A stretch of 25,333 nt of DNA from Oscillatoriaceae cyanobacterium Prado104 (lineage in GTDB: Bacteria; Cyanobacteriota; Cyanobacteriia; Cyanobacteriales; Microcoleaceae). The position numbers and the translations under genes are program-made. The stretch is taken from assembly GCA_025454405.1 (NCBI GenBank), contig JALOON010000042.1, forward strand, positions 1 through 25,333, read 5' to 3'. How positions within the stretch are numbered: the first letter of the stretch is position 1; the number at the start of each line of letters is the position of its first letter. Of this stretch, positions 3,422 to 24,415 are shown in pieces. The notes beneath the pieces are model-generated. The model had not been told where the DNA came from. It ran no database searches and saw only the letters and a program-made list of their open reading frames with translations.

Positions 3422-3471
3422 TAGTTGACAGTTGACAGTTGACAGTTGACAGTTGACAGTTGATAGTTGAC
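3422..3471. repeat. (AGTTGAC)7 heptamer tandem repeat immediately after the hisZ stop
   Basis: tagttgacagttgacagttgacagttgacagttgacagttgatagttgac, read directly. Confidence 0.9.
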
Positions 3472-3774
3472 TATCCCCATCCCCCAATTGAAAATCGACA
3501 ATCGATTGACAGCCAACAGCTAGGTAATTAGAAATTGGGAATTTGTTAAAAATTAATAAGTGTGGTATGATGTAGGCGATCGCGAGCAGATTAAGTAGGA
3601 AGCTGTCAATAAACCTTAAGGCATAACAGAATGTCGGGTGATCGCGCTATCTGCGATAGTTTTGCTTCAGTCTGTTACGCTCGCAAATGACAAACTTAAT
3701 GTATTTTCCCACCCATCAAAAATCCTACATCCAAAACCCACAATTCGCAATCAAAAATCCAAAATCTAAAATCT

Positions 3775-3899
3775 AAAATCGAATATTCGCCAATCGAAAA
3801 TCCTCAATCGAAAATCCAAAATCCAAAATCTAAAATCGAATATTCGCCAATCGAAAATCCTCAATCGAAAATCCAAAATCCAAAATCTAAAATCGAATC
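3775..3899. repeat. 57-bp tandem duplication x2 (+11 bp partial third copy) built from AAAATCN heptamers, ending at the ferredoxin start codon
   Basis: Unit aaaatcgaatattcgccaatcgaaaatcctcaatcgaaaatccaaaatccaaaatct at 3775-3831 and 3832-3888. Then aaaatcgaatc, then ATG at 3900. Confidence 0.85.
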
Positions 3900-5078: not shown

Positions 5079-5184
5079 GTTGGTAGTGGGGACTTCAGTC
5101 CTCAAAGGACTAAAGTCCTCACTACCAACCAGGTTGGTAGTGGGGACTTCAGTCCTCAAAAGACTAAAGTTTTCACTACGAACC
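5079..5184. repeat. Tandem pair of ~52-bp palindromic elements (gttggtagtgGggacttcagtcctcaaaggactaaagtcctcactaccaacc); MITE/REP-like
   Basis: Copy 1 at 5079-5130, copy 2 at 5131-5184. Each folds into a compound hairpin (ggtagtg..ggact / agtcctcactacc) with an inner agtcc/ggact stem. Related fragments occur at 13780-13806 and 25018-25057. Confidence 0.8.
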
Positions 5185-7349: not shown

Positions 7350-7856
7350 ATGACAATATTGTGTCATTATGACAGGATACTGTCAAGTATGGTCGAGCAA
7401 CAAATTTATTCTCCGGCTGGCGAGGCGTTTACCGAATTGGTGTTGGAGATATTTCGGGTGAATGGGTGTCTGTTGGCTGAGGGCGATCGCATGACAGCCG
7501 ATTTAAACTTAACCAGCGCTCGCTGGCAGGTGATGGGCGCGATCGGGCGCGAAGCGATACCAGTGGCGCAAATTGCGCGCAAAATGGGGCTGAGGCGGCA
7601 AAGCGTGCAACGTCTGGTGGATATTCTGGCGGGTGAAGGGCTAGTTGAGTTTAAGCCCAATCCCGAGCACCAAAGGGCGAAGCTAGTAAAACTGACAGAA
7701 ATTGGGTGGCAAAAGCTCGATCGAATCAATCAAATAGAGGTAGGTTGGGCGAACAATATTAGCCGTGAAATGGATGTTGAAAAATTAAAGAATGCTGTTG
7801 AAATATTGCAGCAAATTCGCAAACATTTGACAGCTTGTGGGAGTTGTGAGTTGTGA
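7350..7856 (+). CDS. MarR family transcriptional regulator; true start probably ATG 7389
   Basis: Winged-helix MarR core ARWQVMGAI...VAQIARKMGLRRQSVQRLVDILAGEGLVEFKPNPEHQRAKLVKLTEIGWQKL. The first 13 codons of the track ORF overlap operator-like palindromes at 7351-7385, so the in-frame ATG at 7389 (MVEQQ...) is more plausible. Confidence 0.75.
   Translation: MTILCHYDRILSSMVEQQIYSPAGEAFTELVLEIFRVNGCLLAEGDRMTADLNLTSARWQVMGAIGREAIPVAQIARKMGLRRQSVQRLVDILAGEGLVEFKPNPEHQRAKLVKLTEIGWQKLDRINQIEVGWANNISREMDVEKLKNAVEILQQIRKHLTACGSCEL
7351..7385. promoter_or_regulatory. Array of alternating TGACA/TGTCA half-sites; candidate MarR operator in the divergent promoter region
   Basis: Read directly: TGACAatattgTGTCA (7351-7366), TGTCAttaTGACA (7362-7374) and TGACAGgataCTGTCA (7370-7385). 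They sit between the divergent FMN_bind/apbE operon start (7318) and the marR start. Confidence 0.5.
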
Positions 7857-7899
7857 GTTGAGGGTTGAGAGTTTTGAGTTGAGAGTTGAGAATAATTCT

Positions 7900-7964
7900 G
7901 AGTTTTGAGTTTTGAATTTTGAATTTTCTTTAACTCAAAACTCAAAACTCAACATTCAAAACTC
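7900..7964. terminator. Long imperfect hairpin from inverted heptamer arrays, (GAGTTTT)n loop (AAAACTC)n; bidirectional terminator candidate between convergent genes
   Basis: 5' arm gagttttgagttttgaattttgaatttt, loop cttta, 3' arm actcaaaactcaaaactcaacattcaaaactc. It lies between the marR stop (7856) and the stop of the minus-strand ATP-grasp gene (7973). U-rich on both strands. Confidence 0.5.
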
Positions 7965-9505: not shown

Positions 9506-9577
9506 GGGAAAGAGAGGGAGAGTGGGGGAGGGGGAGAGGGGGAGAGGGGGAGAGAGGAAGAGGGGGAGAGGGGGAGA
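9506..9577. repeat. (GGGGAGA)n polypurine heptamer tandem repeat (~10 units) between the GT39 and ATP-grasp genes
   Basis: gggaaagagagggagagtgggggagggggagagggggagagggggagagaggaagagggggagagggggagaa, read directly. It is followed by (ATCCGTG)3 at 9634-9660 and (CAACTGT)5 at 9678-9710. Confidence 0.9.
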
Positions 9578-9677
9578 ATTTTTCTTTCTTCCTTCTGACG
9601 AAGAACGAATGACTCAAGAAATACGGATAATTCATCCGTGTATCCGTGTTATCCGTGTCGTGCCTTCCTTCTTCCTT

Positions 9678-9710
9678 CAACTGTCAACTGTCAACTGTCA
9701 ACTGTCAACT
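9678..9710. repeat. (GTCAACT)5 heptamer repeat, reverse complement of the AGTTGAC family, directly after the GT39 stop
   Basis: caactgtcaactgtcaactgtcaactgtcaact, read directly. Confidence 0.9.
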
Positions 9711-11738: not shown

Positions 11739-11776
11739 CCCTTCTTCCTTCTTCCTTCTTCCTTCTTCCTTCTCCC
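11739..11776. repeat. (TTCTTCC)5 polypyrimidine heptamer tandem repeat
   Basis: cccttcttccttcttccttcttccttcttccttctccc, read directly, about 120 bp upstream of the recA ATG. Confidence 0.8.
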
Positions 11777-16584: not shown

Positions 16585-17973
16585 ATGCCATCCCAGGACT
16601 TTTCGTCTCCACCCAAAACCAAAGAGTCAAAAGTTCTGCCTTCTCTGACTGACAAAATCTTGCCTGCAGAGCCCGCAGCCCGATCGCCAGCTAACACAAA
16701 CTCTTCAGAACTCAGTATTTACCAAGCTCAAGATATCATTTACAAATTTTTTCTGCACCACATTAATAACTCTGCCCCCCAATTGGTTTGGCAAGAATTT
16801 AAAAATTTGTTTATAGAACTTATTGCCCCGGTAGATCCCAAATTAATTCAAGCAATACATACTATAATTTCATTTGATAGCCAGTTAGAATTTAATAACT
16901 TGTTCAAACGCTGCTGTTACATTTTATTAAATAACTGGGTCTCTCACAGGCAGTACCAATTTGCTCTAGACTTAGTTACAATTATCAGCGAGCGCAGTCA
17001 GAGCGCACCCGACGCAGACAATTCTCTCAAATCTCTCAGGCTGTGGCTTGCCAACTTTGTCAGCAGCGCAGACTACGAAGAAATCCAAGCGTTTGTATCC
17101 AAGTACGACACCCAACAGCAAACTCACTGGACTTCTCGCTACGAACCTTATTTGCTAGTCAGCCGGTATCTCGATGCTACCAGCAGCCACGAAGAGCGCG
17201 AAGCTGCTAAACTTCAGTCGCAGCAGCTAAAAGATAAGTACAAGTTTGAACTGGCAATGTACACATCTCGATCGCAGTCCGCTGTTTTCAGATCCAAAAC
17301 TTACCACAACCCGACTCTTTTAGGAGATGAAACCCTGCGTTTGATCAAAATAATTTTGGTAAACCGGGGTTCGTTAAGCTATCCCAGCTTGGCAAAGATT
17401 TTTTTAAATCAAAGTCAATATGTTACTTACAAACAGTTTAAAGAAAGCCTGATTAAGTATTTGTTTTATTATGCAGAACATACTGATTTTATGGAGAGAA
17501 TCCAACGAAAATTGCTCGAAAATTTAGAAACATTGTATCGCGACAATGATGGTGAAATTGTTAACAGCAGCCTACAGTTCCGAACCTGCAACCACATCAT
17601 CAAATGTTTGACAGTGGAAAATACAGGAGAACCTTCAGCCTTATTTTTAATCTTTTTCAGCCATCTCAATCCATTAAGTCTCGCAATTTTGTTACTGAAA
17701 TTAGTTTTAATTTCTCCCAATTCTCGAACGAATTTAGAACTTTATTTAGCCCGATTAATCCAATACCATCAAGAGCATTCGGCGATCGACTGTCAGTGGC
17801 TGATTAATTTTTTAGAAATCTGTCAGATCGCCCTAACTATTTACGGAGAAAACGTTCAATACAATTTGGTGAATATGTCCGAAAACAATCTGGACGATCG
17901 GCTAATAGTTGACCTGAATAATTGTCGGGTTTTTTCTCAGCAGAAAAAGAGCCGAAAAGAAGTTGACAGTTAA
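16585..17973 (+). CDS. Hypothetical protein, markedly AT-rich relative to neighbours, one C-terminal hydrophobic segment
   Basis: 462-aa ORF with an ATG start. No recognisable motif. Composition is visibly lower in GC than the flanking genes. There is a hydrophobic stretch ALFLIFFSHLNPLSLAILLLKLVLI near residues 350-375. Confidence 0.6.
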   Translation: MPSQDFSSPPKTKESKVLPSLTDKILPAEPAARSPANTNSSELSIYQAQDIIYKFFLHHINNSAPQLVWQEFKNLFIELIAPVDPKLIQAIHTIISFDSQLEFNNLFKRCCYILLNNWVSHRQYQFALDLVTIISERSQSAPDADNSLKSLRLWLANFVSSADYEEIQAFVSKYDTQQQTHWTSRYEPYLLVSRYLDATSSHEEREAAKLQSQQLKDKYKFELAMYTSRSQSAVFRSKTYHNPTLLGDETLRLIKIILVNRGSLSYPSLAKIFLNQSQYVTYKQFKESLIKYLFYYAEHTDFMERIQRKLLENLETLYRDNDGEIVNSSLQFRTCNHIIKCLTVENTGEPSALFLIFFSHLNPLSLAILLLKLVLISPNSRTNLELYLARLIQYHQEHSAIDCQWLINFLEICQIALTIYGENVQYNLVNMSENNLDDRLIVDLNNCRVFSQQKKSRKEVDS

Positions 17974-17978
17974 GAAAA

Positions 17979-18055
17979 GTTTTGAGTTTTGAGTTTTGAG
18001 TTTTGAATTAAAAAATGTCTTTAACTCAAAACTCAAAATTTAAAACTCAAAACTC
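17979..18055. terminator. Second inverted heptamer-array hairpin, (GTTTTGA)n loop (TCAAAAC)n; bidirectional terminator candidate
   Basis: gttttgagttttgagttttgagttttgaat / loop taaaaaatgtctttaa / ctcaaaactcaaaatttaaaactcaaaactc. It lies between the convergent stops at 17973 (+) and 18070 (-). Confidence 0.5.
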
Positions 18056-18069
18056 CCGATTTCCCAATT

Positions 18070-21000
18070 TTAGTCTGCATTTTCCGCAGTTTCTATTTCC
18101 CTAACTAAATTGAGAATTTGATGATATTCAAAATTAGACAGATGCTTGTCAAGAATTCGGGCAAAATCATCGCGATTGCTCCGAATTTCCTCGATTTTCT
18201 CAGCAATTAAATCGAAGTCTGCATTGCGAATTGCCTGTTGCATCTGGCTCGTCCATTCTCGCGAAAGTTTGGGCTGCGATTCAAGTACAAACGTTGCAGT
18301 AGCAGTATTCGAGAAACTTTCCGAGCCAACAGTTGAATTCTCAAATACCTGATTTAGATTGAGTACCGCACTCCCAGCTTCAATTTTAGATAAGTCTAAA
18401 ATTTGATTGATTAGTTGCAGCAGTTGTTCTCCGTTGCGACGAATAATTGTAATTTGTTCTTGTTCTTCGGGGGTTAAATTAGGACTGGGCTGCAATAATT
18501 GAGCGAAGCCGAGAATGGCATTGAGAGGAGTTCGCAGTTCGTGGGTCATATTAGCGAGAAAGATGCTTTTAGCTCGATCGGCCGCTTCTGCTGCTTCTTT
18601 TGCTTGTTTGAGTTCTTGTTCTGCCTGTTTGCGATCGCTCGTATCAAGGATGACGCCGTGCCAGACAATATCTCCATTTTCGCGAAGTTCCGGCCGGGAA
18701 AAACCTTGCAGCCATTTGAGTTTTCCCGATGCTGTAAAGATCCGCCATTCGTGAGAAAATGGTTCGAGATTGGTTGCGCTTTTGACAATTGCCTCGAAGT
18801 GACTCGCCCGATCGTCCGGGTGCATTTGTTCGTAAATTAAACATGAATCATTCATAATTTCCTCCGGTTCCAATTCTTGAATTTCCCGGCACCGCGGACT
18901 GATATATTCCATCACGAACGAGCCGTCGCTGCGCCGCACGAAAATGTAAAGTTCTCCCGGAACAGTAACAGCTAATTTTTGAAACAAAGCCTCGCTTTTT
19001 TTCAAAGCTAATTCAGCCTGTTTGCGATCGCCAATATCAAACCCAAAGGCAAAAACAAAGTCAAAATTGCCATCTTCATCCAACACCGGCGTGCCGTGCC
19101 ACTCTGCTAGCAAAATCCGCCCGTCTTTAGTCTGGATGCGGTGTTCGTTAACTGTTTGCTGGCCCGCAACTACGCGCTCGAAAACCGACATTAAGGTAGC
19201 TCGATCGACCTCGGGTACAAATGTCTCTAAGTAATCTTGACCCATAATTTCCTTGGCAGTATAGCCCACAGCTTGCAGCATGCTGCGGTTCGCCAGCAGG
19301 ATTTTGCCCCCAGCGTCGAGCGCTACAAAAAAAATCGGCGAATTTTGGATAACATTTAAGTTGAAATCCCGTTCTTTGCGAATAATTTTTTCAGCTTGCT
19401 TGCGTTCCTCAATTTGGAGTTCCAAGCGGGAATTGATTTCAGCTAGTTCGATCGTCCGCAAGGTTACTTCATTCTCCAGGCGGCGGTTGTAATCTGCCAA
19501 TATTTGTTCTGCTTGTTTGCGCTCGGTGATATCTTGAAACACGATAAGTACATAAATAACATTGCCACCCGCATCAAACATCGGCTGCGATCTCACTTGC
19601 AAGCGAATCACTTTCCCATCTCGGCGCAGATCCATATCTTCAATGAAGGTTTCTTTGCCCATCACGGCGCGTTCAAAGGGCGAATCTTCGATCGGGTACA
19701 GCCTATCGGTTCCGGCTACATAAAGCTGATAAGTTTCTGAGAGTTCTTCAGGAGTTGTAGTTGCTACCGCCGCTTTACCGGTAATCTCTCCTCCGGCTGA
19801 ATTCATAAAAATAGTGCTGCCGCTGGGAGTCAGGGCTACCACCCCAACGGGCAAGCATTCTAACAGCTTGGCAAATTTTTCTTCGCTGGCGGCCACAGCT
19901 TGAAAGGAGTTTTTCAGTTGTGCCACCATCTCGTTAAAAGATTGCGCTAATTCCCCCACTTCATCGGTGCGACTTACCGCCACAGTGCGATCGAAATTCC
20001 CTTTAGCAATATCTTTGGCTGCTTCGTTGAGGCGCAGCAGCGGCAGAGTGATCCATCTCGCAGCCAGCACTCCGGAGACCGTCGATACTACCAGCGCCAG
20101 CGCGCACAGTAAAATTGTAGTGCGGGTATTGCGGTTAATTTCGGCCATGAAATCGGATTCGGGAACTACGATCGCGATCGACCACTTCAAGCCGTAGTTG
20201 TTAGAAAACGGCACCACTTCCAAAAAATAACGCTGCCCTGCTGCGGTAAATTGCAGTTGCTGCCGTTTCTGCATCTTGTCGAAGCCCTGAAAATGCGAGT
20301 GCAAATACTTAGCAGCAGTGCGAATTAAGGGTGTCTGGCTGTCTAAAACATGCAGGCGCTGCAATTCTTGCTTTCCGGGAACCTGTTTGAAGGGGGAGTC
20401 CCGACTCGAACTCGCTACCAACAGTCCCGAGTGTTCGATCGCAAAAATTTGTCCTTGTTGGCTGAGTTTAATTTGATGCAGAAAATTTTGAATTTCTGAG
20501 AGGGAAAGATGGACTGCGCAAACTCCCAACAGTTTACCGGTGCGATCGCGAATTGGTTGAGTTGCAGCAATAAAAATAGTACCCGGAGTAAAGCCCGGAT
20601 AAATGCTCGTCCATGTAGGTTTATTAGTTGCCACAGCTTCTTTGTACCAGGGGCGTTGGCGGGTACGGTAGACTCTCGGTTCGATATTTAATTGCCGCCC
20701 GCGATCGCCGGAATCGTCGGTAGCGTAGTAAACATTCCAAAAGTTGTTCGCTCTGTTGGCAGTGACGATTTGCAAGCTATTATCTTTTTGGTTGCGCCAC
20801 ATCCCGAGATATTCTCCTGTTTCGGCACCTAAGGAAATCCATTGAATGCTTTTAAATGTTTGCATTTGATGCCACAGGAATCTCTCGGACTGCGGCTGGG
20901 GCTGTTCTAAATTGAAGTTCAATTCACCGCGGGCGATCGCGGCCGAGTTGAGTTGATTTGCCAAGTATGCTGTTTCTAGAAAATTCGTCAGCTTTTCTTC

Positions 21001-21192
21001 GATTCTTTTGCTAGCCTCACCCATTAATTGCTGGGCGAGGTTTTCCACTGCTTTTTGCCCGTTGCAAACGGAGAGATAGCCGATTAACCCTACCGTCCCG
21101 CCAATTTGCAACACAAAAGACGCGACGAGAACGAAGCGCAAGGGGATTTTTTTCGGTTGTTTGGCAGCGCGGCTTGTTGAGAAAAGCGACAT
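18070..21192 (-). CDS. Multi-sensor signalling protein: TM, dCache_1 periplasmic domain, TM, HAMP, 3x PAS/PAC, HisKA. It lacks a HATPase_c catalytic domain.
   Basis: Periplasmic RPWYKEAV... dCache motif. HAMP is [40 protein letters not shown]. Three PAS units end [18 protein letters not shown] and DTSDRKQAE. The H-box is [21 protein letters not shown]. The final ~120 aa carry no N/G1/G2 ATP-binding boxes. Confidence 0.85.
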
Positions 21193-24197: not shown

Positions 24198-24415
24198 ACT
24201 CGGTTTTCTTTGGTATGAGTGCGCGCTTAACTGCAATCTCAAATCTATAATCGCCCGCTCCTGTGTTGCGTCGCCGTCCCAAAACAATCGAAAATAGCAA
24301 ATAGCAAATCGCAAATCGCCCGCTCGTCAGTTGCGTCGCCGAGCGAAATTAATCGCCAATCGCCAATCGCCAATTGCCCGATCGTCCCAGAACGAATTTG
24401 TTAAGCTTTACAGTT

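Follow-up and report, generated by a model that had tools for sequence, protein, structure and literature searches.

A cyanobacterial membrane sensor with histidine kinase architecture and no catalytic domain: evidence for an in-frame deletion followed by purifying selection

Why would a large membrane sensor carry every upstream module of a histidine kinase and lack the domain that binds ATP? The question is raised by a stretch of 25,333 nucleotides (nt) from Oscillatoriaceae cyanobacterium Prado104 (contig JALOON010000042.1, positions 1 to 25,333), which will be called the window. A gene on its minus strand encodes a sensor of 1040 amino acids (aa), and an earlier note on this DNA had pointed out that the protein seemed to lack the catalytic and ATP-binding (CA) domain known as HATPase_c. 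The analysis shows that an ancestral sensor kinase lost its CA domain by one deletion and that the product was retained by selection; we consider it probable, with some reserve, that it now signals through its dimerisation and phosphoacceptor (DHp) domain without being a kinase. The features of the gene, with expectation values (E) from profile searches and the confidence score of AlphaFold2 models (pLDDT, predicted local distance difference test) where relevant, are as follows:

18070–21192, minus strand: complete coding sequence of the CA-less sensor, 1040 aa, from the list of open reading frames (ORFs); intact ORFs of 1037–1039 aa are found in the relatives L001, L008 and L003.
21070–21144, minus strand: predicted N-terminal transmembrane helix, aa ~17–41, a hydrophobic stretch read off the sequence by eye.
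20362–21051, minus strand: dCache_1 sensor domain, extracytoplasmic, aa 48–277 (Pfam PF02743, E=1.7e-15; PF22673, E=3.9e-10).
20056–20124, minus strand: predicted second transmembrane helix, aa ~357–379, a hydrophobic stretch adjoining the N-terminal side of HAMP, also read by eye.
19912–20064, minus strand: HAMP domain, aa 377–427 (Pfam PF00672, E=3.4e-17).
18613–19887, minus strand: three PAS domains, aa ~436–860 (PAS_4, PAS and PAS_9 match three stretches each, PAS_3 two, TIGR00229 three).
18373–18573, minus strand: HisKA (DHp) domain for dimerisation and phosphoacceptance, aa 874–940 (PF00512, E=2.6e-22; helical hairpin in the AlphaFold2 model).
18541–18543, minus strand: codon of the phosphoacceptor His884 in the motif H-E-L-R-T, read from the sequence, which fits H-E/D-x-x-T/N.
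18357–18358, minus strand: approximate in-frame deletion junction, aa 945/946, from ortholog alignments and ambiguous by a few codons.
18277–18357, minus strand: low-complexity linker, aa 946–972, predicted to be disordered (pLDDT below 50 over aa 939–974).
18085–18276, minus strand: C-terminal helical tail module, aa 973–1036, which aligns with the tail that follows the CA domain in full-length orthologs (also detected by profile search and modelled by AlphaFold2).

The upstream kinase modules and the canonical H-box described in the earlier note were all recovered: dCache, HAMP, three PAS domains and HisKA, with His884 in place. The H-box spans aa 882–894 and also includes Glu885 and Thr888, and the H-E-L-R-T motif is unchanged across every aligned ortholog. 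In the HisKA motif H-E/D-x-x-T/N, the acidic residue serves kinase activity and the T/N residue phosphatase activity (PMC3510030). The protein thus has the DHp domain and H-box of a canonical sensor histidine kinase of the HisKA family (EC 2.7.13.3); what it lacks is the other defining part, a CA domain with N, G1, F and G2 boxes on the C-terminal side of DHp.

That absence held in every search. Pfam did not match HATPase_c at E<=10 in the whole protein, its last 173 aa or its last 90 aa. No HATPase_c was found with NCBIfam, and the match of every kinase model to the sensor ends by about aa 950. Local CA and receiver (REC) profiles run in six frames over the entire 25-kb window gave no match, and neither did tblastn with two ortholog CA domains against the same sequence. 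A degenerate HATPase_c hidden inside the tail, the finding that would have undone the original observation, was therefore looked for and rejected: none was recognisable in the C-terminal residues by Pfam or NCBIfam at E<=10, by the local CA profile or by tblastn. The segment in question is slightly shorter than the 120 residues first given, as about 100 aa follow HisKA. Nor is there space for a separate catalytic ORF, as had been noted: past the stop codon comes a spacer of 96 bp with a hairpin in it, and a convergent gene of 462 aa ends at 17973. None of the 19 larger ORFs of the window scanned with Pfam contains a HATPase_c or REC domain, and no response regulator or CA-only gene is present in 23 kb of the related locus L001. 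The sensor thus has no CA domain of its own through which to bind ATP, and cannot autophosphorylate in cis.

Comparison with homologs indicated how the domain was lost. Among the 120 best homologs listed, the two closest are also without PF02518 (P0001, 88% identity, 1038 aa; P0002, 81%, 1037 aa). The next ~48 among the matches listed all have PF02518; they come from Microcoleus and Tychonema, show 68–72% identity and measure 1111–1229 aa. In an alignment that included three short proteins, one block gap over the CA domain is the sole large difference between short and long forms. Full-length orthologs are about 1200 aa long and run HisKA, HATPase_c, linker and a helical tail of ~60 aa, and what comes after HATPase_c in the long forms can be aligned with the last ~90 residues of the window protein (...PKVSPEWTSNLKQAVRxADFDLIAxxIEEIRS...NFDYQKILDLIAEIEL). 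Compared with the ortholog P0003, the window protein is short of 184 aa, corresponding to P0003 residues 948–1131. The alignments thus show an internal in-frame excision that respects domain boundaries and joins the linker that used to follow the CA domain directly to the end of DHp helix 2. Orthologs do carry the catalytic domain, between HisKA and tail, and the truncation proposed in the earlier note gives way to removal of the whole CA domain with retention of the tail.

The sequences give no clue to the mutational mechanism: in 16 of the 17 extant orthologs with a CA domain, that domain has no flanking direct repeat of at least 7 nt. Deletion driven by direct repeats was accordingly discarded: no k-mer of at least 7 nt is shared between the junction regions in those 16 orthologs, and microhomology of the ‘LN/VN’ type is the most that is possible. 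The earlier note had asked whether the point of divergence coincides with the heptamer-repeat hairpin at the end of the gene. It does not, as the junction lies ~285 nt upstream of the stop codon; a link between deletion and hairpin was also rejected on the grounds that such repeats occur throughout the window.

Are the short and long genes the same gene? The order CobD, Rrf2, AbrB-like regulator, sensor kinase gene, Sll1247-like gene and M50/CBS protease is found in the window and in the CA-less loci L001 and L008. The order from CobD to the M50/CBS protease is likewise found at the CA-containing loci L009, L029 and L036, and L004 differs only by the lack of the Sll1247-like gene. Because this gene order is common to loci with and without the CA domain, the two forms are true orthologs that occupy a single locus. 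When one genome was scanned for each GTDB species, 29 orthologous loci were obtained, and only L008, from the metagenome-assembled genome JAAUPF01, was CA-less among them.

A neighbour-joining tree was built from 28 intact sequences and 1001 shared columns. It places the CA-less four (window, L001, L008 and L003) in one clade, sister to 24 CA-containing orthologs from Microcoleus, Tychonema and Lyngbya. Mutual identity among the four is 80–88%. They come from independent sources, namely the window, ENA/JGI Ga0394881 together with Logan SRR13020431, JAAUPF01, and GCA_051652045. The CA domain is present in more distant homologs and in nearly every other carrier of the tail module, which makes the form with the domain the ancestral one. 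A single deletion at the base of a small Microcoleaceae clade accounts for these data. As a separate observation, the L008 record (JAAUPF010000010.1) is titled ‘Richelia sp. CSU_2_1’; the genes of its locus are 87–100% identical to those of the window and its nearest relatives are Microcoleus and Tychonema, so that the Richelia label looks doubtful.

Selection after the loss could be measured. Ratios of nonsynonymous to synonymous substitution rates (dN/dS) were calculated by the Nei–Gojobori method for the six pairs within the CA-less clade, all of which post-date the deletion. The whole gene gave dN/dS of 0.20–0.25 at dS 0.26–0.51. By parts, the values were 0.19–0.24 for the sensor region, 0.05–0.22 for HisKA, 0.3–1.0 for the linker and 0.24–0.65 for the tail, which makes HisKA the most constrained region of the CA-less gene. 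The median of the CA-containing clade is 0.31, and the CA-less clade is no higher. Because all CA-less comparisons post-date the deletion, constraint has not been relaxed. In addition, 4.3% of the possible point substitutions in the sensor ORF create a stop codon, so that neutral evolution along a path of dS 0.5 should have brought ~67 nonsense changes; none was observed (P ~1e-29). These figures show that the CA-less gene is functional and kept by purifying selection. They also run against the recent pseudo-kinase considered in the earlier note, and against decay, as the deletion is common to four lineages that have diverged to dS 0.26–0.51 with dN/dS ~0.2.

Damaged copies of the ortholog were found elsewhere, and they do not resemble the CA-less gene. 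The pseudogene at L032:4001-6826 has several frameshifts, a deletion of aa ~298–446 that affects the end of the Cache domain, the second transmembrane helix and HAMP, and a partial CA deletion as well (NKG...QKG). Another, at L030:3977-7657, has two frameshifts, and the copy at L025:3977-6556 is truncated at about aa 846. Independent inactivation in other lineages shows that the gene can be lost, yet it has been kept in the clade of the window.

What might a sensor of this kind do? The starting point was an orphan membrane sensor kinase made of dCache, transmembrane, HAMP, three PAS, DHp, CA, linker and helical tail. One in-frame deletion of ~184 codons in the ancestor of the clade removed the CA domain and left the tail in frame. 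Signalling could then continue via the intact DHp domain, with His884 in its H-E-x-x-T motif, if the sensor domains control the dephosphorylation of a response regulator that has been phosphorylated by another donor. An alternative step would be reverse or trans phosphotransfer onto His884. Either way, its part would be that of a negative regulator or phospho-sink gated by the signal, and not that of a kinase. A role as response-regulator phosphatase or phospho-sink appears to us the most likely one, because the phosphatase activity of HisKA proteins resides in DHp, and DHp alone is sufficient for it in EnvZ and NtrB (PMC3510030), and because phosphatase or phosphoacceptor roles have already been proposed for the class of ‘HisKA, no HATPase’ proteins (PMC5847659). 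The earlier note had offered a phosphatase, phosphotransfer-only or scaffold sensor as the alternative to truncation; the evidence is compatible with that alternative, and the role itself is one that we infer.

Several considerations weigh against signalling through DHp as phosphatase or phospho-sink. Neither the window nor the related loci hold a cognate response regulator, and there is no candidate substrate. In model kinases the CA domain strongly stimulates the phosphatase activity of DHp (PMC3510030), and a DHp-only construct of EnvZ was without phosphatase activity in mammalian cells (PMC8971529). With four sequences that are 80–88% identical, conservation of the H-box says little on whether the constraint is catalytic or structural. 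Finally, the repeated inactivation of the ortholog shows that the gene is dispensable in some backgrounds.

A different explanation keeps phosphorylation and moves the kinase to another protein: the sensor would be a subunit phosphorylated in trans, in a heterodimer or complex whose other member is a paralog that has the CA domain or a distinct ATP-binding protein, and the phosphate of His884 would be passed to a response regulator. Retention of His884 and of the adjacent Glu885, needed for kinase chemistry (PMC3510030), speaks for this arrangement. Partners are also conceivable, given that Microcoleus has many dCache-HAMP-PAS-HisKA-HATPase paralogs (for example P0110, P0111 and P0113), and the conserved tail, found on hybrid kinases too, could be a docking element. 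However, neither the window nor 23 kb of L001 contains a CA-only or paralogous kinase gene, and the species-representative scan gave one locus in the CA-less genome JAAUPF01, although divergent paralogs would escape such a scan. DHp domains, moreover, usually homodimerise specifically. We regard a trans-phosphorylated subunit as possible but unlikely.

Lower still do we rate a sensor or scaffold that is independent of phosphorylation and works only through contacts of its PAS, DHp or tail regions, in the manner of DivL and PsmA, with the histidine as a structural relic. The sensor part is under equally strong selection (dN/dS 0.19–0.24), the tail is selected too (0.24–0.65), and histidine pseudokinases with roles other than phosphorylation are known (PMC12963549). 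Nevertheless, the known pseudokinases of this type have lost the histidine or the phosphatase motif (PMC12963549). The window protein still has an intact H-E-x-x-T, and no part of its gene is under tighter constraint than HisKA, at 0.05–0.22; such a scaffold therefore seems distinctly doubtful.

The retained tail deserves separate consideration. As had been thought, it is helical and belongs to no named family; it is not, however, peculiar to the window protein. An exhaustive profile search with the tail collected 349 clusters (50% identity) at E<=1e-3, with a consensus of ~60 aa: LPxEWxxxLxQAxxxADxDLIxxLIEQIRxxNxxLAxxLxxxxxNFEYxKILxLI. The tail of the window protein aligns along its full length with this family. 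In 140 of 148 representatives (P0137-P0283) no more than 12 aa separate the module from the C-terminus. The commonest architecture is that of hybrid kinases, HisKA-HATPase_c-REC-tail, and HisKA-HATPase_c-tail is second; the complete tail-bearing proteins that were checked are histidine kinases, mostly hybrid. The known range of the carriers is the filamentous cyanobacteria. Apparent stand-alone ‘tail-only’ or ‘REC-tail’ proteins were set aside as mostly gene-call fragments of hybrid kinases that start inside REC. Word-indexed homolog searches with the tail returned fragments only, tblastn of the consensus against plasmids gave no match, and the module has no match in Pfam, NCBIfam or PDB sequences. 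Weak matches to an XPC-binding domain in 10 of 61 tail members were dismissed as probably compositional.

Structure prediction of the C-terminal part, which the earlier note had recommended, gave a helical tail bundle after a disordered linker. In the AlphaFold2 model of aa 852–1040 an intact DHp helical hairpin is followed by the linker (aa 939–974, pLDDT <50) and the tail, and the tail model itself is a bundle of three to four helices with pLDDT 86. It does not qualify as an HPt domain, which is a four-helix bundle with a conserved phosphorylatable histidine.

One further protein in the tail family combines HisKA and tail with no HATPase_c: P0223, a 324-aa REC-HisKA-tail protein from a JGI/ENA metagenome, with an intact H-box (SHELRTP). 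As P0223 is unrelated to the window protein, the CA-less HisKA-tail arrangement must have arisen more than once. A speculation, which we hold to be improbable, is that the tail serves for docking and tethers other two-component proteins as partners, and that the CA-less sensor is phosphorylated in trans by, or controls, a tail-bearing hybrid kinase. If true, this would amount to a natural split kinase complex with several sensors, a wiring principle that to our knowledge has not yet been described for two-component systems.

The gene might also be a non-functional allele, a pseudogene heading for decay. Its catalytic domain is gone, and the frameshifted or truncated orthologs at L032, L030 and L025 indicate that loss is tolerated. 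Against this stand four intact ORFs of 3.1 kb with dN/dS of 0.20–0.25 at dS up to 0.51, the probability of ~1e-29 that neutrality would leave no nonsense change, and a deletion that is exactly in frame and falls at a domain boundary; decay is accordingly very unlikely. Collapse of the CA-coding segment as an artefact of sequencing or assembly is the least credible explanation, to the point of being negligible, as it has no specific support beyond the metagenomic origin of the related sequences, the same junction recurs in four divergent sequences from independent projects, and the lack of a direct repeat of at least 7 nt around the CA domain in 16 of 17 orthologs leaves no obvious cause for a collapse.

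The surroundings of the gene offer additional observations. The spacer downstream of its stop codon contains the following element:

17978–18054, no strand assigned: TTTTGAG/CTCAAAA heptamer-repeat hairpin between convergent genes, an inverted repeat with 35-nt arms and 91% complementarity.

Its folding energy is -38.2 kcal/mol (z=-8.5), and it is probably a bidirectional terminator. Short tandem heptamer repeats are of a kind known from filamentous cyanobacteria, and in the window they occupy many intergenic spacers (708-736, 2079-2179, 3423-3471, 3715-3898, 7841-7964, 9677-9710, 11740-11773, 17978-18055 and 24286-24378). Reverse-complementary heptamer arrays occur at, for example, 7841-7964 and 17978-18055 (GAGTTGA/AACTCAA; AGTTTTG/AACTCAA). 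The tandem-repeat output also lists a 54-nt unit present twice at 5079-5184, with 92% matches and an internal palindrome (GTTGGTAGTG...CACTACCAAC), and an octamer array at 9511-9577 ((AGAGGGGG)x8.4). An Rfam scan of the window gave no match.

The convergent 462-aa gene (16585-17973, plus strand) had no match in the Pfam copy used; its L001 homolog carries precomputed assignments to Sll1247_N/Sll1247_C (PF27130/PF27138). An Sll1247-like gene stands at this position in most orthologous loci, is absent in the L004/L005 group and was not found in L013. On the other side, a cyanobacterial AbrB-like regulator (PF14250; 21527-21916, minus strand) lies 334 bp upstream of the sensor gene on the same strand. 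It is 97–100% conserved, and its adjacency to the sensor gene is kept in all orthologous loci examined.

Annotations routinely mistake HisKA sensors that lack an ATPase domain for kinases, and we know of no such sensor that has been characterised. Sister clades with and without the CA domain at the same locus provide a natural and polarised comparison, and make it testable whether a natural DHp-only sensor is a phosphatase, a phosphoacceptor or a scaffold. The value of the case lies in the evolutionary polarity given by syntenic CA-containing sisters, in selection after the loss and in the retention of an unannotated tail. For the specialist it is a useful natural experiment rather than a surprise; it also draws attention to a widespread, unannotated C-terminal module of cyanobacterial histidine kinases, hybrid ones included.

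How does the window protein compare with known systems? With full-length orthologs such as P0003, P0004 and P0033 (1194–1229 aa) it shares 68–72% identity over the residues common to both, the locus, the dCache-HAMP-3xPAS-HisKA array and the tail; in these, HisKA and tail are separated by a complete HATPase_c (PF02518), and the window protein is without those 184 residues. By its sequence, it falls squarely into a described class. Non-enzymatic kinase-like proteins termed ‘HisKA, no HATPase’ were described by Galperin et al. 2018, with phosphoacceptance, phosphotransfer or phosphatase activity as the proposed roles and none of them experimentally tested (PMC5847659), and P2CS uses the name ‘possible incomplete histidine kinases’, a usage found in bioRxiv 10.64898/2026.02.27.708494. 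Like them, the window protein has N-terminal sensors (PAS and others), a HisKA domain with the conserved histidine and no recognisable HATPase_c. The examples of the class are, however, mainly archaeal and end at HisKA, whereas the window protein is cyanobacterial and has a conserved module after the former CA domain. Unlike theirs, its CA-containing orthologs are known and syntenic, which allows the loss to be dated and polarised.

[quoted passage not shown] They were engineered in the laboratory and receive no sensor input, and their weak activity could not be reproduced in one heterologous system (PMC8971529); the window protein, in contrast, is natural and retains a full sensor array. With Spo0B and ChpT it shares a DHp-type histidine domain without kinase activity. 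In these proteins a four-helix bundle shuttles phosphate between receiver domains; they are soluble and free of sensor domains, and a degenerate alpha/beta CA-like domain is still present in them. The window protein does not belong with them, as its C-terminal module is all-helical and predicted transmembrane helices, Cache, HAMP and PAS are present. Finally, DivL and PsmA are precedents for the loss of autokinase activity in conserved, functional kinase-like sensors (PMC12963549). What they have lost is the histidine or the phosphatase motif, and a degenerate CA domain is still there. The window protein is the reverse: the CA fold is absent, and His884, Glu885 and Thr888 are all in place.

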